Below are positions 947-56,601 of a stretch of DNA of 64,000 nucleotides, one piece after another. A model generated the notes under the pieces. That model was given only the letters and a program-made list of their open reading frames with translations. It was not told the origin of the DNA and ran no database searches. Position numbers and translations under genes: made by a program. Location: positions 5,312,001 through 5,376,000 of the forward strand of contig CM000153.2 of NCBI GenBank assembly GCA_000004695.1, given 5' to 3'. Position 1 is the first letter of the stretch, and each line of letters starts with the position of its first letter. The stretch is from Dictyostelium discoideum. Its lineage: Eukaryota.

Positions 947-1029
947 CCGGCTTTGGCGCAATGGTAGCGCGATTGACTGTAGTAACGAAAGTGATCAATC
1001 GGTTGCTAGTTCGAATCTGGCAAGCCGGA
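947..1029 (+). tRNA. tRNA-Tyr (anticodon GUA) with ~11-nt intron (about 984..994) 3' of the anticodon
   Basis: Acceptor stem CCGGCTT/AAGCCGG, D-arm GCGC-AATGGTA-GCGC (A-box TGGCGCAATGG), anticodon stem ATTGA/TCAAT with loop CTGTAGT (GTA), T-arm GCTAG-TTCGAAT-CTGGC (B-box), discriminator A, T6 terminator at 1031..1036. Confidence 0.85.
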
Positions 1030-19324: not shown

Positions 19325-22300
19325 ACCCATATCCATATAAGGCATTCTCAATTTTGAATATGTTAAGTAAATCAAATGGTAGATGTAAATCATTTGATGC
19401 ATCAGCTGATGGATTTGTTAGAGGTGAATGTATTGGTGTTGTTATTTTAAAGAATTTAAAAGATGCAATTAAAGATGGTAATAGAATTTATTGTACAATA
19501 AATGGTGCAAGTGCAAATGTTGATGGTATTGGTTATTCTGATAAATCAAATTTCTATTCACCATCATCAATTTCACAATCTGAAAATTTAAAAAATGCAA
19601 TTCAATCAACCAATGGAACTGTTAAACCATCTGATATAGATTATGTTGAAGCACATGGCACTGGTACACCAAATGGTGATCCTGTAGAAACCGAAGGTAT
19701 ATCAAAAGTTTTTAAAGATACTCGTTCAACTGATACTCCATTATTAATTGGATCATTTAAATCAAATATTGGTCATTGTGAAGCTGCTTCTGGTATTGCT
19801 TCATTAATCAAATGTTGTTTAATGTATAAAAATAAATGTTTTGCACCAAATATTCATTTTAAAACACCAAATCCAGCAATTAAATTTAAAGAATGGAATT
19901 TAAAAGTTGTAACTGAACCAATTCCATTTAATGAAAATAAAAATACTTCAATGATTATTAATAACTTTGGTGTTACTGGTTCAAATTGTTGTTTAGTATT
20001 ATCTCAATTTAATAATACAAATAAACAAAAACAACAAATGAAAACAAAAATAAATAATTATTTAATTCCATTTTCAGCAAATTCAGTTGAATCATTAAAA
20101 AAATATCAATCATTAATTATAAATAGTAAAGAAAATGAATTAAAATATAGTTTTGAAGAATTTGTTAAAAACCAAGTATTTATTAAACCAACATCACTTT
20201 ATCAAAGATCTGTAATTGTTGCAAAAGATTGGAATGATTTTAATAATGTTGAAAATCAAGTTAAATATCAAACTTCAAGTAGTACTTCTTCAAATATTAC
20301 AATTACAAATAAAAATAATAATCCAATAACTGTATTTGTATTTTGTGGTCAAGGATCACAATATAATACAATGGCATTAGAATTATATAAAAATGAAAAA
20401 GTATTTAGAAATTCGATGGATATGCTAGATAATAAAATGAAAAATTATTTTGGATATTCAATTTTAGAGAAATTAAGAGCAATTCAAGATAGTGATAAAC
20501 GTTCAGTTCATGAACAAACAATGGCACAACCATCAACTGTAATTATTCAAGTATCATTATATGAACTTTATAAACATTGGGGTATAAAAGCATCATTTAT
20601 GTTGGGTCATAGTCTTGGTGAAGTAACAACTGCTTATTGTTCAGGTATGATTGATATTGACCAATTATGTTATTTAATTTATCATAGATCAACATTACAA
20701 ATAAGAACAAATGGGTTAGGTAAAATGTTATCAATTAACATTAGTTCAGATGAATATAAAACTAACTATATGTCACGTTATCCAACCATTGAAATTGCAT
20801 GTTATAATTCACCATCATCAATTGTAATCGCAGGTAATGAACAAATTTTAAATGAAATTTCAAAAGAATTAAAAGAAAAAGAAATTTTCTCAGCAATGTT
20901 AGGAAGTTTATCAAGTTTTCATACAAGTAGTCAAAATATAATTAAAGATGATATTTTAAATTTAAATATCCAATCAAGTCAACCTGTTATTCCAACATTT
21001 TCAACAGTTACATCAAATTTATTTAATGAATCAACTATTTTTGATTCTGAATATTTCTTTGATAATATTTCAAAACCAGTTTCATTCACTCAAACAATTT
21101 CAAATTTATATAAACATATTGAAGATAATCAAATCGGTTCAAATATTGTATTCATTGAAATTGCACCACATCCAACATTATCATTTTATTTAAAACAAAT
21201 GATTCCAAAACAATCACAATACTTTAGAAATGGTGAATCAATATCAGTTTATTCAACACTTCATAAGAAAAAGAATGATGTTGAAGAATTTCAAAAATCA
21301 ATTTCACAATTATTTTGTGATGATGCTTATGATATTAATTTTAAATGTCAATTTAATAATATAAATAGCAATATTGAGGCTATTAGTAATTTTAATTTAC
21401 CATTATATCAATGGGATGATCAACATTATTGGTTAAATAAATCAATTGAACATAAAAATAATTTAATTGGACCACCAATTTCAATTCTCGGTAATTCAAT
21501 GCAAGATTCAAATCCATTTATTAAATCATATCAAACAATAATTGATACTGGAAAAGATGCATTCAAATATTTAAAAGGTCATAATGTATCTGATAAATGT
21601 TATTTCCCAGGTGCAGGTTATATTGATAATCTTTTAAAATTATATCCAAATCAAGATTTAACAATTAATTCAATTGAATTTAAAACACCTTTAATATTAT
21701 CAGATGATAATGGTCAATTTTTACAAACAAATGTTTATCAAACTGGTAAAAGTGATTATAGAGCTCAATTTCATTTTAAAGATAATAGAACAAATGTATG
21801 GGTTCAAACATGTACTGCTAATTTTCAATTATATAATAATGGTAAAGTTGATAAATTAAATTTAGAAGAAATTAAATCAACAAAATGTAATTTATCATCA
21901 ATACCATGGGATAAATTTTATCCACATATAAAAAATAGAACTGGTTTAAACTATAAAGACAAATTTCAAAATACAATTGAATGCTATCTTGGTGATAATT
22001 GTTCATTAACTGAAATATCATTAGAATTACCAGAAAACTTTCATGATCAAGAATCATTTTTTAATACACCAATTTTAGATATTTGCTTCCATGGTTCAAT
22101 TGTTTTAATTAAGGATAATTGTAAACTTGTTTTGGATAAAATTGATGGTTTTAAATTATATACATCAAACATTCCAAAAAATAGATTTGATCATTTAAGT
22201 ATTTTTGTATATACAACTATGAAATCAACAAAATCAAATTCATACAATTCAACATACACAGTAATGTTAGAAGATGGTACTGTTATACTTGAAGTTGAAA

Positions 22301-34746: not shown

Positions 34747-34954
34747 AAATTAAAAAAAAAAAAAAAAAAAAAATATCTTGTTGACCTTTTTTTCATTTTT
34801 TTTTTTTTTTTTTCGTAACGTCTTTTCACAAAAAAAAAAAATAAAAAAAATAAAAAAAAAAAAAATAATAATAAACGTTGACAACAATAACAACAATACA
34901 TGAAAGGAATAATACTGATTTAAAATTTCCAAAAATAAATTATATAATAAATTA

Positions 34955-35054
34955 NNNNNNNNNNNNNNNNNNNNNNNNNNNNNNNNNNNNNNNNNNNNNN
35001 NNNNNNNNNNNNNNNNNNNNNNNNNNNNNNNNNNNNNNNNNNNNNNNNNNNNNN
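34955..35054. other. Assembly gap (100 N)
   Basis: Run of n characters. Confidence 1.
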
Positions 35055-35673
35055 AATAATAATAATAATATAATAACAAAAGATATAATAGATTATAATT
35101 TTAATAATCATATTAAAAATGATAATAGTAAATTTAATAATATTTTAAAAAAATACCAAATTAATAATAATACTTTTGAAAATGGTGCAATATTAGATTT
35201 AAATGATATTGGTAGTAATATTTTATATAAAAATGAAGATAAAGAAAAAGATGAAGAAGAATATTATTATTATAAAGAAAATCAAAATATATATAATAAA
35301 ATTGGTAATGATTTAAATTATAATTTTCAATATAATGAATATATTGAAAATAATGATTTCGAAAACAATCAACCAATTGATAATTTTAATGTAGAAGGTA
35401 GTGGTGGTGGTAAACAAATAATTTCTTATTATTTATCAAAGAATGGAAATGATACAACAGGAAATGGTACAATTAATTCACCATATCTTAGTATATGTAA
35501 AATTGTAAACATAATAAATAGTTATAATGGAATTAATATATTTAAAGTTTTTATTGAAATTGGAAATTATGAAGCAGTTGAAGGTTGTACATTAAATATT
35601 ATAAATAATTCAGTAGTTAGCTTAATTTACTTTACAAAAAATGAAATAATAAATAATAATAATAATAATAATT

Positions 35674-35719
<46 letters not shown>

Positions 35720-38127
35720 TAATTATAATAATAATAAATCAAATCTTATAATACCAAATATAATAAATTTAAATATAAATTTAAAAAATTCAACATTTTT
35801 TTTAAATTATATTAATTTACATTATTTTAATGAAAAAGTTATAAATATAACATATGGTATAAATACATTTCAATTTTTAATTGAAAATAGTAATTTACAT
35901 TGTGTAAATCCAAAATTACCATATTGTAATATTTTATTTAATAAATTAAATCAAAGTTTAATCATTAATGATGATAATGAAGCAATGATTTTAATAAAAA
36001 ATTCAAATATTATTAAATTTGATTTTTATTTTAATATTATTGAAATGAATGTAGAGAATTCAAATTTATATTTTACAAGTTTATATTCATTAATTAGTCA
36101 AAATTTAACATTTTCAAAATCATATTTTAATAATACATTAATTTATTTGGTTGAATATCAAGCAATAAATGTTTCAATTGATCATTGTAAAATGATTTAT
36201 GATTTTTCAAATAATATTCAAGTGTTTTTAATGGGAACAGGGAATATATTAACAATTTCAAATTCACAAATGGAAAGTACAGGTGAATTCTTTTCATCCT
36301 ATATCACTTGTAAGAATGCAAAAGTTCAATTGATGAATGTACAATTTATAAATTGGTATTTACTTAGACCATTTATAAATCTTAGTTTAAATTCAACATT
36401 AATTATGGAGAATGTTTTTGCAAGGAAAATGTATATACCAGCATTTATTGAAATTGGTAATAGTGAACTTATAATTGATACATTGGAAATTAGTGGTAAT
36501 AAATTGGTACTAATAATTATTGAAGGTCCATCAGTGATTTCAATTAGTTATTTGACATTAAAATATCAATCAGAACAAGGTTCACCAATTATGATGAATT
36601 TTCCAGGTGGTGGATTTGGAATGAAAACTATAATCAATATCACTTCTTCAAATTTTATAAATATCGATGGTTTCACATTAAAAGATGCTCAATTAACTTT
36701 ATTTAACGTTTCAATGCATAGTGATAGTATAAATAGTTTATTTGCATTATCATCAAGTCAACTATTTTCAAGTAAAAGTACATTTAGTAGTAGTTTAATC
36801 GTTGGTAGTTATTTTTTATTTTCATTAGATTTCACATCACTAGTTGATTTAGATCGTTGTATTCTTACAAATTCATCATCACTTTTTCAAGCAAATTCAT
36901 TTTCAAATATTACAATTACAAATTCATTAATTGATTCAGTATTCTCAAGATCGGTTGCAATTGAAATTCAAGGCGGTTCATCATTTACAATGATAAATTC
37001 AATTATTAATAAAACTTATGTTGTTAGTCAAAGTTTTATATATAGTTCTTCAAATTCTGATATCATAATTCATAAATGTAATTTCTTACAATTTGTAATG
37101 GGTTTAAAACCATTGGGTAATTTTTTAAATAGTAATGTTTTCATTGATCATTTGTTATTATATCAATCATTTTTTCAAAATCAAATTTTCGTTGCAACTT
37201 CATCAATTATGTATATTAGTGATACAAAGTTATTTAATAATTCAATATATGGTAGTGAAATGTTTTTATTAAATAATCAATCTTATCTATTAATGAATAA
37301 TTCTTTAATTTATGGTAATTCAATTTCAGTTTGTTTTTCAAGTTCTCATTCATTGGCAAATATTCATAATGTTACATTTCAAAATAATTCAGGTATTTTC
37401 TTATATAGTGTTGATAGTAAAATTAGTTTATCATTATTAGAATTTTCAAAGAATCCAATTTCATCATTATATTATTTATTTTATTTTACAAATTCATCTG
37501 CAACCTTTCAACAATTAACAATCGATTCAAATTATTTTATGGGTAGTGTAATTGAAGCTCATTTCTCTGAAATTTTATTTACAAATTTAATATTTTCATT
37601 AAATCAAAATGTTGATAATTTATTAAAGGATAGAGAATCACCATCATTAGTTTTCACTCATTCAAATGTTAAAATTATAAATTCAACAATTAATTCAAAT
37701 TCACAATGGTCTTTAGATTTAATTTGGTCACAAAAATCAATTTTAATAATTAAAAATAGTTTATTCAATTCAAATTCAATACCATATAATGGTTATTTAA
37801 TTAGATTAGAAACTTGTCATCTTTCTTTAGATCATTGTTTAATATTTGGTACTCAATCAATTGAAGGTACAATTGGTTCATTTAATTCAATAATTAATGC
37901 TACAAATAATTTATTCTTACAAAATAATGCTCTTGAAATGGGTGGTTGTTTTTTTCTTTCAAATTCTCAAATTTTATCATTTTCAAATAATTCATTTTTA
38001 AATAATACTGCTTCAATTGGTGCTGCAATCTTTACAAATGGCACTTTAATTAATAATACTTTAATTATTAAATCAAATAAATTTTTAAATAATAATGCAT
38101 ATGAATATGGTGATAATATTGGTTCAT
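35055..38127 (+). CDS. Beta-helix/Pmp-like membrane protein paralog B, 5' coding part; true start unknown because it is lost in or upstream of the gap; ends at a GTAAGT donor (phase 1)
   Basis: YLSKNGNDTTGNGTINSPYLSICKIVNIINS is collinear with YVNKNGNDTSGDGTINSPFFSICKIINVINQ in paralog A. GGCFFLSNS..IGAAIFTNG Pmp-like motifs. Confidence 0.55.
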
Positions 38128-38197
38128 GTAAGTTTTTTATTATTATTATTATTATTTTTTATTTTTCATTTTTAATTTAAAATATATATTAATCTAT

Positions 38198-49881: not shown

Positions 49882-50514
49882 TTACTTTATAATTGGTGGT
49901 TCTAATTTAAAATTTGAAAAATTTTTAATTAAAATTGATTCAGGTTTATTTAATATAAAAGATTCTAAAGATTGTTGGGGTTGTCTTAAGATTTGAGTAT
50001 GAATGAAATTACGAACAGTTTTAAAATCAGTTTCTAAATAAAGTGCACCAATGAATTTAATTAAACAACGATATGAATAATGACTAAAATAAATTGATTT
50101 ATAAAATGAATTTGAATTAATTTGAAAACGAATAAATTCTGATAAACCAATATCTTTACAACGTTCTCTTAAAAAGTAAGAACTTTTAATTGATTCTCTA
50201 AACTCTTCAAATATTGATTGATCATTAAATGAAAATTCTGAATCTGAAATTGAATGTCTATAACATAATTCTCCAAAAAATCTTAATTTATTTTGTTCTG
50301 CTTCATTTTGTAAACTTGGACAATGTGTTAAACTATCAATTATAATTTTTGGAATTTCAAAGTCATCATTGCCATTTTTTGAAAATTTAATATTTAAATC
50401 TTTTAATAATTTTAATAAACTTGGTTTAAATTCTGTTTCCATATCTTCATTAACTTTTTTACCATATAATTCAGAGGTGGTGGTGGTTGTTGTTGTTATT
50501 GTTTTATCAATTTG

Positions 50515-50547
<33 letters not shown>

Positions 50548-50787
50548 TCCATTCGTTATTGTTATAACTTTTGAATCATTTATATCAATACCTTCAACAT
50601 CTAAATATAATGGTTCTAAATCATCAAATTGTTCGGTTGTTTTTATTATATTTTGAGTTTTTAAACGAATAAATCTTTTATTATTATTATTAAAATTATT
50701 AAAATTATAAAATATATTTTTATTTTCAATAAATAAATTTTTCCTAATATTACAATTATTTGTAATTTTAATAATATTTTTAATCAT
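49882..50787 (-). CDS. RNase III-domain-like protein (degenerate signature; possibly a mitochondrial ribosomal protein L44/L3-type)
   Basis: NKLRFFGELCYRHSISD (cf. ERLEFLGDA) and IKFIGALYLETD (cf. FEALIGAIYLD); basic N-terminus MIKNIIKITNNCNIRKNLF. Confidence 0.35.
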
Positions 50788-51023: not shown

Positions 51024-51512
51024 TTATTTTAATTTTTTATTATTATTTTGATTTTGATTTTGGTTTTGATTTTTTTTTGAAAAAATTATTAATTTAATAA
51101 ATAAAAATATATTTATAAAGAAACCTAATGTTAATACAAAGATTCCAAAAAATATGAAAACATATTTAAGTAAACAAAAGTTTGAACCAAAATAAATAAA
51201 AGTATCAATTGATGATGATGGATAATTTTTTAAAATTTGATAATGACAATAATTTTCAAGTTCATCAAAAATTAAACCTAAAATTGGTATTAAATTATAA
51301 AGGTCACTAAATGATTTTTGATTTTCATAACCCAAGATTGGGTATGTTTTTGATAACATTGAAATTACAATAATTGCTAAAAGAATTGGAAATATAATAT
51401 CATAATAACTTGTATACATTGTCATATATAAATCTCTACCTTTTGGTCCTAATAATTCTAATGTTTGAATTGCTTGAGTCTTTGTATAACCTATTAAATA
51501 TGAATCTAATAA
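51024..51512 (-). CDS. Multipass membrane protein of unknown function, exon 2 (gene ~207 aa)
   Basis: Frame open upstream of the ORF-track Met: LLDSYLIGYTKTQAIQTLELLGPKGRDLYMTMYTSYYDIIFPILLAIIVISML...; several hydrophobic helices. Confidence 0.45.
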   Translation of the reverse strand, partial: LLDSYLIGYTKTQAIQTLELLGPKGRDLYMTMYTSYYDIIFPILLAIIVISMLSKTYPILGYENQKSFSDLYNLIPILGLIFDELENYCHYQILKNYPSSSIDTFIYFGSNFCLLKYVFIFFGIFVLTLGFFINIFLFIKLIIFSKKNQNQNQNQNNNKKLK

Positions 51513-51615
51513 CTTTTTTTTTTTTTTTTTTTTTTTTTTATTATTTAATATTTTTAATAATAATAATAAGAAAATATAAATAATTTTTTAAAAATAAAAA
51601 ACACTCAATACTTAC

Positions 51616-51750
51616 ATTAATACTTAATTGTGACATAATTTTTGTTGACATTAAATTGAAAATAAAAAATGCCAAAACTAATGTAGGAAATAATACATAT
51701 GGTGAACCTGTTAAATTTCTTAACTTGTTTGATAAACTTCTTAAAAACAT
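51616..51750 (-). CDS. Same membrane protein, exon 1; intron 51513..51615 (GTAAGT..AG)
   Basis: MFLRSLSNKLRNLTGSPYVLFPTLVLAFFIFNLMSTKIMSQLSIN then GTAAGT. Confidence 0.4.
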
Positions 51751-52282
51751 TTTATTTTTACTTTTATTATTATTATATATAAATATATAAAACCATACAA
51801 TTAAAAAAAGAGTGAAAAAATAAAAAAACTAAAAAAAAATGAATTTGGTTTTTTTTTTTTTTTTTTTTTTTATAAAAATAAAAAAATTTTCCATTTTTTT
51901 TTTTTTTTAATTATTTTTTATCATTATTTGATTATTAAATAAATCAATAATAAATCAAATTAATAATAAAAACTTTATATTATGTCTCATTTAGAAATTA
52001 TAATTTCCTTTTTTTTTTATAAAATAATTAAAAACAAATATTAATTTTTTTTTTGGAAATATTATTAAACAACCAAAATATTCAATTTAGATAATAATAA
52101 AAAAAACATGATTAATTAAAAAATTAAAATTTTAGATTTTATAAAAATAAATTATTTTATTTAATATTTTTTTTAAAATATAAAAAAAAAACCCCACAAA
52201 GCTAATTAAATAATAAAAAAATACTAATGTTAGAAACTAATTTAGAAATATTATTTAATATTTAATTTATAAATATTTAAAT

Positions 52283-52375
52283 GGTTATTATCAGACAAAA
52301 ATTTTGTACACGTAATGTTTCTATCCGCAAATAAAACTCAGTCCGCTCGTCAAGGGTTCACATCATTAAATAACC
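52283..52375 (-). ncRNA. Box C/D snoRNA (1 of 3)
   Basis: Minus strand reads GGTTATTtaATGATGTgaaccc..gcggaCTGAg..ttgtCTGAtAATAACC: terminal stem GGTTATT/AATAACC, C box AUGAUGU, D' CUGA, D box CUGA 4 nt before the 3' stem; ~93 nt. Confidence 0.6.
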
Positions 52376-52570
52376 AAATAAATCAATACTAATTAAAAAT
52401 TATAAAAAAGAAATTAACATACCAATTAAAATGCAGTTATATAGCAAGACTTTAAAACAAAGAGCTAGTTATTTTTTTATTTGTACAGGTTCTAAATTTT
52501 AAATTAAAAAATAATATTAATAACTGATTTTTTTTTTAAAAAAAAAAAAAAATAGAAAATTATTAAAGGA

Positions 52571-52660
52571 CCAATTGATAAATCAGACGTGTTAAAAAAG
52601 ATGTCCTCATTTTACAATCAGACATATGCTTGTATGAAAATCATCATATCTATCAATTGG
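52571..52660 (-). ncRNA. Box C/D snoRNA (2 of 3)
   Basis: Minus strand reads CCAATTGATAgatATGATGAttttcatacaagcatatgTCTGAttgtaaaatgaggacatcttttttaacacgTCTGAtTTATCAATTGG: perfect 10-bp terminal stem, C box, D' and D boxes. Confidence 0.65.
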
Positions 52661-52884
52661 TTCGAATAATTGTAATTTAATTCTTACCTTTATTTCATGA
52701 GGGGAAAAAAAAGTTTTTAAAAACTAATTTTTTTTTTTGGAGGCATCTGCATACCAAGAATTAAACTGAACTATTAAACAAGGCAATTTTCTAGAAATAA
52801 ATAATAAAAATAATATGTTAATAATTTAATCTTTTTTTTTTTATAAAAAAAAATGATTTATTTAAATAATTATTTTTTTTGAGA

Positions 52885-52980
52885 TATTTTGTCAGATGTT
52901 ATAGAAGAAGTAATGTTTTTATTTCATCATTCTCTTTAAGATGTCCCTAACAGGTTTTCATCATATAAATAATCCCAAAA
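52885..52980 (-). ncRNA. Box C/D snoRNA (3 of 3)
   Basis: Minus strand reads TTTTGggattatttatATGATGAaaacctgttagggacatcttaaagagaATGATGAaat..ctataacatCTGACAAAAtatctc: C box, internal C' box, D box with a 5-bp terminal stem. Shares the GGACATCTT element with snoRNA 2. Confidence 0.5.
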
Positions 52981-53261
52981 ATAAATTATTCTTTAAAAAA
53001 AAAAAAATATATTTTAAAACTTACTCTTAACCTTAAGACATTTTATTGGTGCACCACAACAAATTGATTTGAATGAATTTTATTTTTTTTTTTTTTTCTT
53101 TTATAAAAAAAAGTGGAACGAAAAAAAAATTTGAAAAAAAAATTTGAAAAAAAAAAGTAAAAAAAAAGAAAAGTAAAAAAAAATAACGTTAAATTCGAAA
53201 AAAAAAAAAAACGTAGTTCTTAAAAATAAAATTAAGCCAAAATTTCCTCATTTTTTTTGTC

Positions 53262-53300
<39 letters not shown>

Positions 53301-55031
53301 TATTATTAACTTTTACAGAAATATTTCAATAAACACAAATAAAACTCAATCAAATGGTATATAGAAGTAATTTATTTAATTTTTTATTTTTTATTTTTTT
53401 TTTTCTCTTTTAAATTGTTCTATGTAACAAAAGCATCACTTTATCACTTTAAATATTTAAGTAAAATCCATTAAAAATTCTTTTCCTTTTTTTTCTTTTT
53501 AATTTTTTTTTTTTTTTTTTTTTTTTATTAATTATAAATTTTTTAAAATAATAATCTTTTTATAATGTTTTAAAAGTAGATTAAAATAATAATAGTTTCA
53601 AATGATTCAAGTAATTCGACCAATGTAAATAATAATTGAAATAATTCTTGAAATAATAGTAATAAAGGTCCAAATTTTTATTGATTATTTTATTAATTAT
53701 TGTGATTTTGAAATTGAATATCCAAAACCAATAGTTTATACTATTGGAGGGAATTTAACAGTCTAATAACTTTTATATTATATTTCAAATATTACAATAG
53801 AGGTTAATAATCAATTACAAAGTAATAATATTTAATTTATAAATTTAACAACAATAACATGTAATTTACCATCAATTAATGAAACAAGTCAATCATCAAT
53901 AATAAACATCTACTGCCAAAAAACACTATAACCACAATTTTTAGAAAAAAGTTATTATTAAAAATAGCATTTGAAAGTAAATCATGGAGTGGATATATTT
54001 TTCAATATTCTAAAGATGAAATTCTGTATAATAAAAGTTATAATTCAAGTGATAAATCTTTTAATTAATAGCACAAATAATAATAATAATAAACAAAACA
54101 AGGAAAATGGAATTAATATATAAGTACAAAAGCACAATTGTGTTAATTTGTACCTTTGTGCCTTCAAGTATAGCTATAATAGTATATTTGATAAAGATTT
54201 TCTTAATAAGAAAAAGAACAAATAAATTATTACATAAATCTTAAAAAAAGAAATTATTTATCACAAGAACAAAAAAGAAATAGGTCGTGCAAAAGTAAAA
54301 GAAGTTGACGAAAAAGATCCAAGAAACAAAATTTGAAAATAAACGTTTAATGCTTCAATATGCTACCAGGAATGCAAAATATAGAAGCACTGTAGCATGG
54401 ATGGAAAAAGAGTTTGAAAAACAAGAGTTTGAAAAATAAGAGTTTGAAAAACAACAAAATCAATCAAAAAATGATAATATTGAATGTTCAAGTAGTGGCC
54501 AAAGCCAACAACAAGATTTTGAAAATAAAAATGAAACAACGTCTCAATTACCACCATCACAACTACCACCACAGCTACCCTCATCACCACCACCATCACA
54601 ACTACCACTACCACAGCTACCCTCATCACCACCATCACCACAGCCACCATCATCATCACCACCACCTACCTTCATCACCACCATCACCACCATCACCACC
54701 ATCACCACCATCACCACCATCACCACCATCATCATTATCATCACCATAAAATAATTCTGAAATTAAAAATAAAATAAAATAAAATAAAAAATAAATTAAA
54801 TAATCCCATTTATTATTTTAATATATATATTTGTTTTATTTTGATTGGTTTGAAATTCTACTTGTTGTATTGTACCATATGACGTTCTACAAATTTGAAT
54901 GTAAATCTATTTTGAAATTCAATTGATTTAAAAGTAACATCTGTATATTGATATAAATTAATTTTAACTTATAAAATTCTACCTGTACCTATGGTTCTAT
55001 TTTGAGCGCTACTGATCTATGGTATGTAAAT

Positions 55032-55245
55032 CCATTTGAAGAATTTCCTTGGCTCTGGTACACCGAGTGGAACGAATTCTAGATCCATTTGATCATAATG
55101 AGTATCAAGAGCTTGCATATATTTGGAGAAAGAAATTAACCAATTGATGGATGGGAAATGTTTACGTTGTGCTAATTTTTTATCTAAACCCCAGAATACT
55201 TGGACGATACCTAAAGTGGCAGCAGTGACTGGATCAGCAAAATCT
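55032..55245 (-). pseudogene. 214-bp duplicated fragment of the vatA coding region (copy of 58722..58933), embedded in a 110-aa ORF
   Basis: Nearly identical to 58722..58933 apart from a 2-bp indel; encodes [54 protein letters not shown]. Confidence 0.8.
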
Positions 55246-56601
55246 ATATTATAAAAATTAATAAAATTAGTAAAATATTCAAATTTTTTCAAAGTTGCCA
55301 TCTTAAAAATTTTGGCATACCTCCACCAGAGGTTTAACTGCACCGACAACTTTAACGTGAAACAAGTTATAAATTAATTAATTAATATTAAAAAATATTA
55401 ATTGTAAATGCAACTTGCATTTACAAATAAATAATTTTTTTTTTTTTCTTTTTTTTTTTTTTCCTTTTTATTCTTTTTGTAAGTTTAATTATAAAAAATA
55501 AAAAAATAGAAATACCTTAAAATTTTATTTTTATTTTATTTTATTTTTTTATTTTATTTTATTTATTAATTTTTTTTTAAAACTAAAATATGGAAAAAGA
55601 AAAAAAAAATAATTTCAATATAAAAATAAACCCTCAATTGAATTTTAAAAAAATAAACCCTCAATTAAATCTTAATAAAATGGTAAAGGGTTATTTTTTT
55701 TTTTAAGGTGTTTTTGACTATTCAAGAATTTTACCACATTATTCAAAAAAAGAAATTAAGTTATGACATAGTTATTTAAATTGATATATCATTCATTCAA
55801 ATGAGAAGAAAAGATGGTAATACCTAAAATCAAGGAAAAGAATCGAGATTGGATATCTAACAGGTAATAAACATATTCAAACATATCGATTACTTGCAAA
55901 AATTTTTTAAAAAAAAAAAAAAAAAAAGATGATGATTAAATAAATAATAATGGTTAATCATAATAAGACATTCCTATTTTTTTAATTTTTAATTTTTTAT
56001 TTTTTTTTTATTTATTTTTTTTTGTTTAAAGATTAAAATTTTTTAAATAAGGAAGTTACACTTTTTATACTAAAAATAATAAATCCAAAAATTAATCTAA
56101 AATTCTTTTTTTTATTTTTTTTTTTTTTTTCTAAAATTTTTTTCACCAAATTTCTTGGAAGTGTTTTCAAAAATCTGTATTTGGAATTTTTTTTTTTTTT
56201 TTTTATTTTTTTTTTTTTTTTTATTTTTTTTATTTTTTTTTTTAATTTAATATATTTTTTTTTATTATTTTTATTTTTTTTTTAGTTTTAATATGATTAT
56301 TTATAGAAATGATGGCCGTTTTAAATATTTACCAGGCCGCTGAAATTATGAATGCTACATTGGTTATATAATATCAAATAATTTGGAATAAAAAGTTAAT
56401 TAAAGAAACAATGCAATTACAATTTGAATATTGTGAAAAAGTGTCAAGAAGACTTTCAATTAAATGGTTTAGAAAATTTTTTTATAAATTACATTTGCAC
56501 CAAAGGTGATGATTCAATTATATCGGGCAAACTGTTCCAACTTTTGATCTTAGACTTAAAGGCATGAAAATCCTACAACTGGTTGTTTAAAGGTTAGAGC
56601 T

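Follow-up and report, generated by a model that had tools for sequence, protein, structure and literature searches.

How are the three small nucleolar RNAs (snoRNAs) of the box C/D class that lie side by side on chromosome 4 of Dictyostelium discoideum released from their precursors, and what do their second antisense arms do? The genes occupy the minus strand of a 64,000-nt stretch of DNA (chromosome 4, 5,312,001-5,376,000; hereafter "the window", in which all positions below are counted), where reading 52000-53300 directly and locating the boxes by script revealed three box C/D units. These are CD26, CD18, and CD28, and the snoRNAs, their targets, and their clustering have been known since 2022 (Diesend et al., Sci Rep 12:1952, PMC8817022). 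That paper places the genes in intergenic DNA and offers no explanation for the second antisense arms; here, we propose an intron architecture for the cluster and an accessory pairing for CD28. That an unannotated host gene carries one snoRNA per spliceosomal intron and that the second CD28 arm is an accessory element appears, as a joint claim, probable, and to the whole reading (known snoRNAs, CD28 pairing, and intron-hosted biogenesis, including a variant in which the introns belong to a downstream gene) we assign a probability of roughly 0.6.

The identity of the units is certain. The primer-extension oligonucleotides published for CD26, CD18, and CD28 match the window exactly (52896-52919, 52587-52606, and 52295-52317, all antisense to the minus strand), no further oligonucleotide of the Diesend set matches it, and a single offset of 5,312,000 places on it all three minus-strand coordinate pairs of Table S5 (chromosome 4: CD28, 5364289-5364369; CD18, 5364580-5364650; CD26, 5364890-5364967; Diesend et al. 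2022, PMC8817022). Extracted lengths and GC contents equal the published ones to two decimals (CD28, 81 nt and 35.80%; CD18, 71 nt and 29.58%; CD26, 78 nt and 28.21%), as do C boxes, D boxes, and the C-to-D gaps of Table S4 (62, 54, and 65 nt for CD26, CD18, and CD28; PMC8817022). From this agreement of oligonucleotides, coordinates, lengths, GC, and boxes it follows that the units are the published CD26-CD18-CD28 cluster, with chromosome 4 coordinates, strand, guides, and targets likewise identical. The cluster is one of two three-gene clusters among the 30 new box C/D snoRNAs reported for D. discoideum, and its members are expressed, as judged from RNA-seq read counts >100, the small-RNA evidence that the initial annotation had called for, and from primer extension (PMC8817022). 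As a gene discovery, the cluster thus has no importance, the snoRNAs having been published.

That initial annotation, made from the letters alone, had proposed three minus-strand box C/D snoRNA units at 52283-52980, and it described them largely correctly. All three units have the C and D as well as the D' and C' boxes of a box C/D snoRNA (the C' box of CD28 being a putative assignment), and terminal stems of the kind that belongs to its k-turn (5 bp in CD26, 10-11 bp in CD18, 7-8 bp in CD28); the perfect 10-bp stem CCAATTGATA/TATCAATTGG and the stem GGTTATT/AATAACC that had been noted enclose the CD18 and CD28 units, respectively. The raised local GC content is borne out (0.24-0.30 over the units vs 0.09-0.13 in the flanks), as is the absence of open reading frames (ORFs), with none of at least 30 amino acids (aa) between 51790 and 53257. 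A D' box CUGA had been assumed throughout and is present in CD18 and CD28; CD26 contains a single CTGA, and its D' box is CUUA. The element GGACATCTT does occur in two units (CD26 and CD18), as had been observed, and the idea that it marks related targets or duplication was rejected: its CD26 copy consists of the 3'-terminal letters of the D' guide together with the D' box (GGACAU|CUUA), its CD18 copy of the C' box and the first letters of the D arm (UGAGGA|CAUCUU). The positions are non-equivalent, the targets differ, and the likeness is coincidental rather than homologous. The CD18 of D. firmibasis and D. citrinum has GGACATTTT in its place. Chance does not account for the cluster, since a scan of the whole 64-kb window for C and D boxes separated by a 50-100 nt gap and closed by a terminal stem of >=5 bp returned four matches, three of them in the cluster, when first-order Markov simulations averaged 0.1; the observation is therefore real and far above chance.

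The guide function of CD26, CD18, and CD28 in rRNA methylation is shown by published experiments. Methylation was detected by RiboMeth-seq at 26S-Cm2603 (CD26), 17S-Am28 (CD18), and 17S-Cm1715 (CD28), and both the target sites and the guides have orthologues in yeast, human, and plant (PMC8817022), namely yeast Am28/snR74 and human U27 for the CD18 site, yeast Cm2337/snR64 and human U74 for the CD26 site, and yeast Cm1639/snR70 and human U43 for the CD28 site (PMC8817022). The published duplexes (CD18/17S-A28, CD26/26S-C2603, and CD28/17S-C1715; Fig. S6) equal the window sequence letter for letter, the +5 register was checked by hand, and all three RNAs guide through the antisense element upstream of D'; the complementarity to rRNA with a methylated nucleotide 5 nt upstream of D' that had been named as a check is thus found at every site. 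In CD18, UACAAGCAUAUGU-CUGA pairs with 17S UCAUAUGCUUGUC and places A28 opposite +5; in CD26, UGUUAGGGACAU-CUUA pairs with 26S rRNA around C2603; and in CD28, UUGACGAGCGGA-CUGA binds 17S ACCGCCCGUCGC in the region of C1715, an A/C pair occupying +6. Each RNA is assembled into a box C/D small nucleolar ribonucleoprotein (snoRNP; fibrillarin, Nop56, Nop58, and Snu13), in which the D'-upstream element pairs with pre-rRNA and brings the nucleotide opposite +5 into the methyltransferase site.

For the question of biogenesis, orthologous loci were fetched with a neighbouring 301-aa ORF (49882-50787, minus) as synteny anchor, giving five genomes: D. discoideum, D. firmibasis, D. citrinum, and two divergent D. 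cf. discoideum assemblies. The snoRNA cluster is present in all four relatives with order and orientation kept, flanked on one side by the V-ATPase A gene and on the other by a gene for a small membrane protein. None of the three D' guides varies, and neither do the boxes apart from the CD28 D' box (CCGA in D. firmibasis). The spacers can barely be aligned except for elements resembling splice sites, and 5' splice-site motifs account for almost every G/C column that is invariant outside the snoRNAs. In 15 of 15 cases (three snoRNAs in five genomes), the snoRNA stands between a conserved 5' splice site and a branch-point-like motif followed by a 3' AG. Within each ~1.3-kb region, strict 5' splice-site hexamers number three on the sense strand, each 40-61 nt before a C box, and zero on the antisense strand, and a random window position has such a motif 30-65 nt upstream with a probability of 0.012. 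The AG follows the D box by 75-111 nt and is itself preceded, at 23-35 nt, by a YTRAY motif, implying introns of 188-243 nt.

The sites vary as splice sites vary. For intron 1, the 5' site GTAAGT is invariant and the 3' AG is kept in all genomes; for intron 2, AGGTAAGAAT is invariant and the 3' site reads TAG in all genomes but that of D. citrinum, which has CAG; and for intron 3, the 5' site alternates between GTATGT and GTAAGT, both canonical, with GGTA(T/A)GT kept in every genome. Changes between GTATGT and GTAAGT and between TAG and CAG hence stay within splice-site degeneracy. In D. discoideum, the three 5' splice sites are the sole strict hexamers of the 1.25-kb region, each stands at the 3' edge of a GC-richer patch, and the 3' TAG lies 87-99 nt beyond the snoRNA 3' end. 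The segments between the putative introns diverge freely in length and sequence, the spliced models (311-366 nt) hold a longest ATG-initiated ORF of 9-15 codons that is not conserved, and an AATAAA-type motif follows the last putative exon in all five genomes. A conserved splice-like frame around poorly conserved, ORF-free segments therefore suggests one snoRNA per intron of a non-coding host RNA, and the cluster is, on these motifs, probably a short non-coding host gene.

Under this reading, a short RNA polymerase II gene would comprise four small, non-coding, fast-evolving exons with one snoRNA in each intron. To free the snoRNAs, splicing would be followed by debranching of the lariats and by exonucleolytic trimming as far as the snoRNP-protected ends; the spliced RNA of ~330 nt would be a by-product. 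The vertebrate genes UHG/SNHG1 and GAS5 are non-coding host genes with one snoRNA per intron, and Mitrovich et al. reportedly described fungal non-coding snoRNA host genes in 2010. Like these, the putative CD26-CD18-CD28 host would have one snoRNA per intron and short, poorly conserved, ORF-free exons, and, again as in such hosts, the snoRNAs keep a regular spacing (75-111 nt) from the 3' splice site downstream of them and are conserved where the exons are not; unlike UHG/GAS5-type hosts, this one is known here from sequence motifs. In the literature searched, neither a host gene with one snoRNA per intron nor the CD28 accessory pairing was found described for Dictyostelium.

The account current in the Dictyostelium literature, and known from plant and some yeast clusters, is instead an unspliced polycistronic precursor that an endonuclease, of RNase III type or other, cuts in the spacers before exonucleases trim the pieces. 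In earlier work, primary transcripts across bi-cistronic Dictyostelium snoRNA units were detected by reverse-transcription PCR (RT-PCR), and the trio was described as an intergenic cluster (PMC8817022), consistent with the lack of an annotated host gene and of a long non-coding RNA (lncRNA) at the locus among the Rosengarten 2017 models listed. RT-PCR across adjacent snoRNAs would, however, equally detect the unspliced precursor of a host gene. Stem-loops of RNase III type were sought in the spacers, whose folding is not significant against shuffles (z = -1.85 and +1.36; another endonuclease may act there), and knocking out the RNase III DrnB has almost no effect on methylation, which is unchanged at the CD26, CD18, and CD28 sites (PMC8817022), as a splicing-dependent route would predict. 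The "equally spaced" arrangement published for cluster genes is one that exon-intron periodicity would yield, and an unspliced precursor leaves unexplained why, on the sense strand only, every one of the 15 snoRNA copies is preceded at 40-61 nt by a conserved, canonical 5' splice-site hexamer. We therefore consider a polycistron unlikely here, if far from negligible.

Three independent transcription units, with the GTAAGT-like blocks serving as promoter or processing elements, fit the locus less well still, and we hold this arrangement to be very improbable. Independent units were suggested by Diesend et al. for the tri-cistron CD16-CD23-CD5, whose primary transcript was not seen (PMC8817022), and the published orphan OR4, ~20 kb away, appears to be independently transcribed from behind an upstream DUSE, the motif ([AT]CCCA[CT]AA) that lies ~63 nt upstream of the transcription start in Dictyostelium non-coding RNA genes. 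At the cluster itself, a search of 52000-53300 for a sense-strand DUSE (CCCAYAA) found none; the nearest match, 52193-52199, is on the opposite strand and not conserved, and the window as a whole holds 7 matches vs 13 expected by chance. The three upstream blocks, moreover, share only the 5' splice-site consensus and vary exactly within its degeneracy (GTAAGT vs GTATGT), and each has its counterpart downstream, a branch-like motif and an AG at regular spacing. OR4, which was fetched from beyond the window end, has a DUSE upstream and no splice-site pair, so that intron organisation is not universal and both organisations seem to exist. As an observation on OR4 itself (fetched locus L005, ~20360-20580, minus; chromosome 4, ~8.4 kb past the window end), its perfect DUSE, tCCCACAAa, stands ~135 nt upstream of the C box, ~70 nt further out than the usual 63-nt distance to the start predicts for an 88-nt RNA; the primary transcript may have a ~70-nt 5' leader, or the RNA may be longer than annotated.

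The introns of the proposed host could also belong to the long 5' untranslated region (UTR) of the downstream gene for a 207-aa membrane protein (ATG 51750, minus), which is oriented likewise and in each of the five genomes is the first gene to follow downstream. Between the last putative 3' splice site and this ATG lie ~450 nt that are rich in poly(A)/poly(T) and resemble a promoter, with the conserved AATAAA (52161-52156), and no further splice-site pair is evident there, so that this variant, counted within the probability given above, seems quite improbable. The 207-aa gene has an intron of its own (51512-51616, minus) that opens with GTAAGT and whose 3' splice site, beyond a long run of A, is AAG, where a TAG 21 nt further on would bring an in-frame stop; from this use of AAG, it follows that 3' splice-site choice in A/T-rich introns is not readable from sequence alone.

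Putative exon 1 of the host gene ends in a block of its own interest. The sequence AAAATGTC(T/A)TAAG (53031-53045, minus; alignment A1 columns ~251-265), conserved in all five genomes, forms a two-codon mini-ORF, ATG-TCN-TAA, in the AAAATG context of Dictyostelium starts, and its sole change, TCT->TCA, is synonymous. The block may serve as initiator or promoter element, or as a minimal upstream ORF marking the host RNA for decay.

We turn to the second arms, some of which, according to the authors, lack a target (PMC8817022). The CD28 D arm contains the 9-mer GUGUACAAA (52311-52303), complementary to UUUGUACAC, which precedes ACCGCCCGUCGC in 18S rRNA. This UUUGUACAC flank 5' of the CD28 target we take to be that given by universal 18S conservation, as in the 1391F primer (GTACACACCGCCCGTC). 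When the CD28 arm was shuffled, 19 of 20000 shuffles reached 9-nt complementarity to the target flank, and GUGUACAAA is invariant in the five genomes, in which adjacent arm positions vary. In yeast, 13 snoRNAs, snR70 and snR64 among them, have conserved elements complementary to target-adjacent sequence (van Nues et al. 2011); the extra pairing stimulates methylation up to about five-fold, and the snR70 guide is among the shortest (van Nues et al. 2011). Given the 9-nt complement, its invariance, and the yeast precedent, CD28 most likely uses extra pairing of the snR70 type, with the element placed in the D arm rather than between D' and C'. The CD28 D' guide and GUGUACAAA would together clamp ~20 contiguous 17S nucleotides, and the accessory pairing would compensate for a short guide with an A/C mismatch.

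Accessory pairing was also considered for the CD18 D arm (AUCUUU vs 17S AAAGAU) and rejected: it spans 6 nt only, the C is not conserved, and, because 1913 of 20000 shuffles equal it, the pairing is not significant. The 3' half of the CD26 D arm (52896-52910, minus; UUCUUCUAUAACAU; UUCUUCUAU(A/U)AACAU) adjoins the D box upstream and is conserved in the five genomes. It has no published target (PMC8817022) and would direct methylation of a U in ...AUGUUAUAGAAG...; its target may be an RNA beyond the rRNA sites that were mapped, or it may have an accessory role like that in yeast snR64.

We acknowledge that several points weigh against the host gene and the CD28 pairing. Splicing was read here from sequence motifs, and the set of 5' splice-site motifs was chosen after the sequence had been inspected. 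The 15 instances are not independent because the five genomes are close relatives, and in A/T-rich DNA, where YTRAY and AG abound, these two motifs count for little by themselves. The cluster is classified as intergenic (Diesend et al., PMC8817022), and no lncRNA model lies at chromosome 4, 5.364 Mb, among the models listed in the Rosengarten 2017 supplement, which a short, unstable RNA could escape. For CD28, the 17S flank of the target comes from universal 18S conservation, not from D. discoideum rRNA.

Table 1. Features of the CD26-CD18-CD28 cluster and of the putative host gene, in window positions
Feature	Position	Strand	Remarks
Putative exon 1	53025..53080 (5' limit nominal)	minus	3' end with conserved block AAAATGTC(T/A)TAAG before invariant GTAAGT
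Putative intron 1, holds CD26	52791..53024	minus	234 nt; 5' splice site GTAAGT at 53024; TTAAC 52821-52817; AG 52792-52791
CD26 box C/D snoRNA	52890..52967	minus	78 nt; published oligonucleotide, Table S5, Fig. S6 duplex
CD26 C box ATGATGA	52964-52958	minus	gap to D box 62 nt
CD26 D' guide UGUUAGGGACAU	52952-52941	minus	Fig. S6
CD26 D' box CUUA	52940-52937	minus	Fig. S6
CD26 C' box (A)UGAUGA	52930-52924	minus	
CD26 D arm, no known target	52923-52896	minus	
CD26 D box CTGA	52895-52892	minus	sole CTGA of unit
Putative exon 2	52688..52790	minus	103 nt, GC 26%; 92-149 nt across species; no ORF
Putative intron 2, holds CD18	52492..52687	minus	196 nt; 5' splice site AAG|GTAAGAAT (AAG|GTAAGA) at 52687; TTAAT 52520-52516; AG 52493-52492
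CD18 box C/D snoRNA	52580..52650	minus	71 nt; published oligonucleotide, Table S5, Fig. S6 duplex
CD18 C box ATGATGA	52647-52641	minus	gap to D box 54 nt
CD18 D' guide region	52640-52622	minus	UACAAGCAUAUGU pairs with 17S
CD18 D' box CUGA	52621-52618	minus	
CD18 C' box UGAGGA	52609-52604	minus	
CD18 D arm, no known target	52603-52587	minus	
CD18 D box CTGA	52586-52583	minus	
CD18 external 10-bp stem CCAATTGATA/TATCAATTGG	out to 52660 and 52570	minus	
Putative exon 3	52423..52491	minus	69 nt, GC 25%; 57-69 nt in other genomes, poorly conserved
Putative intron 3, holds CD28	52202..52422	minus	221 nt; 5' splice site TTG|GTATGT at 52422; CTAAC 52233-52229; AG 52203-52202; alternative AG ~52223
CD28 box C/D snoRNA	52289..52369	minus	81 nt; published oligonucleotide, Table S5, Fig. 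S6 duplex
CD28 C box AUGAUGU	52366-52360	minus	gap to D box 65 nt
CD28 D' guide	52359-52342	minus	UUGACGAGCGGA pairs with 17S
CD28 D' box CUGA	52341-52338	minus	CCGA in D. firmibasis
CD28 putative degenerate C' UGCGGA	52329-52324	minus	putative assignment
CD28 candidate accessory element GUGUACAAA	52311-52303	minus	invariant 9-mer, 5 genomes
CD28 D box CTGA	52294-52291	minus	
Putative last exon	52150..52201 (3' limit nominal)	minus	AATAAA 52161-52156
Predicted splice junctions		minus	TTAAGGTTAAGA|AAAATTGCCTTG, ATGAAATAAAG|AACCTGTACAAA, CATTTTAATTG|CTTTGTGGGG
Predicted junctions, second notation		minus	TGTCTTAAGGTTAAGA|AAAATTGCCTTGTTTA, CTCATGAAATAAAG|AACCTGTACAAATA, CTGCATTTTAATTG|CTTTGTGGGGTTTT

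With respect to known snoRNA families, we searched Rfam at gathering thresholds over the whole window and, in E-value mode (E <= 10), over 1.1 kb at the cluster. The Rfam check proposed as confirmation did not supply it, as no family attains its gathering score at the cluster; the only match in the window at these thresholds is a tRNA at 947-1029. CD18 matches SNORD27 (RF00086) with 35.3 bits and E = 4e-4, short of the gathering score of 52, and CD26 matches Afu_335 (RF01513) with 26.0 bits vs a gathering score of 50 and SNORD74 (RF00284) with 22.9 vs 41. These sub-threshold similarities lie in the guides, with the Afu_335 and SNORD74 matches covering that of CD26. No match at E <= 10 overlaps CD28 (52289-52369), SNORD43/snR70 included, and snR70 (RF01238) matches only within CD18, at 14.5 bits. 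The sequence-only reading of the three units was hence correct, whereas Rfam at curated thresholds is blind to CD26, CD18, and CD28.

Guides and targets reveal the relationships that these models miss. CD18 has the same D' guide core as SNORD27 (U27), yeast snR74, and AtU27 (ACAAGCAUAUGUCUGA), aimed at small-subunit A27/A28, and the same box order; because guide and target are the same, it is a functional orthologue of SNORD27 beyond the reach of the curated model. Human U27 is located in an intron of the non-coding host gene SNHG1/UHG, and CD18 differs from it in lying in another, unannotated putative host. CD26 shares with SNORD74 (U74), snR64, and A. fumigatus Afu_335 the D' guide CCUG(A/U)UAGGGACAU and, directly after it, a D' box CUUA that departs from the consensus, the stretch CCUGxUAGGGACAUCUUA being common to CD26, SNORD74, and Afu_335; SNORD74 and snR64 target the same large-subunit cytidine (yeast C2337, human C3820), and the CD26 D arm is unrelated. 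CD28 guides methylation of the same small-subunit cytidine (yeast C1639) as SNORD43 (U43), snR70, and AtU43, also with a short guide, and its orthology to SNORD43/snR70 rests on the target site only. Both snR70 and CD28 have an additional conserved element that complements the rRNA immediately upstream of the target; in snR70 this element lies in a loop between D' and C', in CD28 in the D arm, as van Nues et al. describe for snR75.

Elsewhere in the window, the fourth match of the architecture scan (37392-37467, minus; ATGATGA, a 68-nt gap, CTGA, and a 7-bp stem of A/T pairs only) was judged a chance match: it lies antisense within an 1100-aa ORF (34878-38180, plus), has no GC island, and its Rfam matches are at noise level. 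A DUSE-like CCCATAA (37537-37543) lies upstream of it. The tRNA gene at 947-1029 (plus; Rfam tRNA, 57.8 bits) contains an intron, a 14-nt insertion after the anticodon loop. The orthologues of the anchor ORF carry a weak RNase III-like domain (PF14622) and measure 359-396 aa in most other assemblies and 521 aa in D. firmibasis, so that the 301-aa ORF is probably the last exon only; that such a gene lies ~1.5 kb from the snoRNA cluster is probably coincidental, the domain being typical of mitochondrial ribosomal proteins. A 110-aa ORF at 55017-55349 (minus) resembles the C-terminal part of V-ATPase subunit A, whose complete gene, vatA, lies at ~58.3-60.7 kb on the same strand; the fragment looks like a truncated vatA duplicate or pseudogene, and one D. 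cf. discoideum assembly has a similar extra fragment among its annotations (L003, 5173-5715). Finally, 54500-54750 forms an island of ~50% GC with extreme C skew amid DNA of 10-25% GC, and the plus-strand ORF at 54414-54749, His-rich and with SPPSPP repeats, is probably a low-complexity coding exon.

If the intron reading is true, splicing-dependent snoRNA biogenesis of the UHG/GAS5 type would be present in Amoebozoa, beyond animals and fungi, and some other "equally spaced" intergenic snoRNA polycistrons of Dictyostelium might be host genes as well. The current account of snoRNA genes in Dictyostelium, in which 46 of 47 are intergenic and half of these polycistronic, would then need revision, and the weak effect of deleting the nucleolar RNase III DrnB would be explained. 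The CD28 pairing, for its part, would give a function to an arm that the authors had left open and would indicate that snR70-type extra pairing is conserved between yeast and Amoebozoa.

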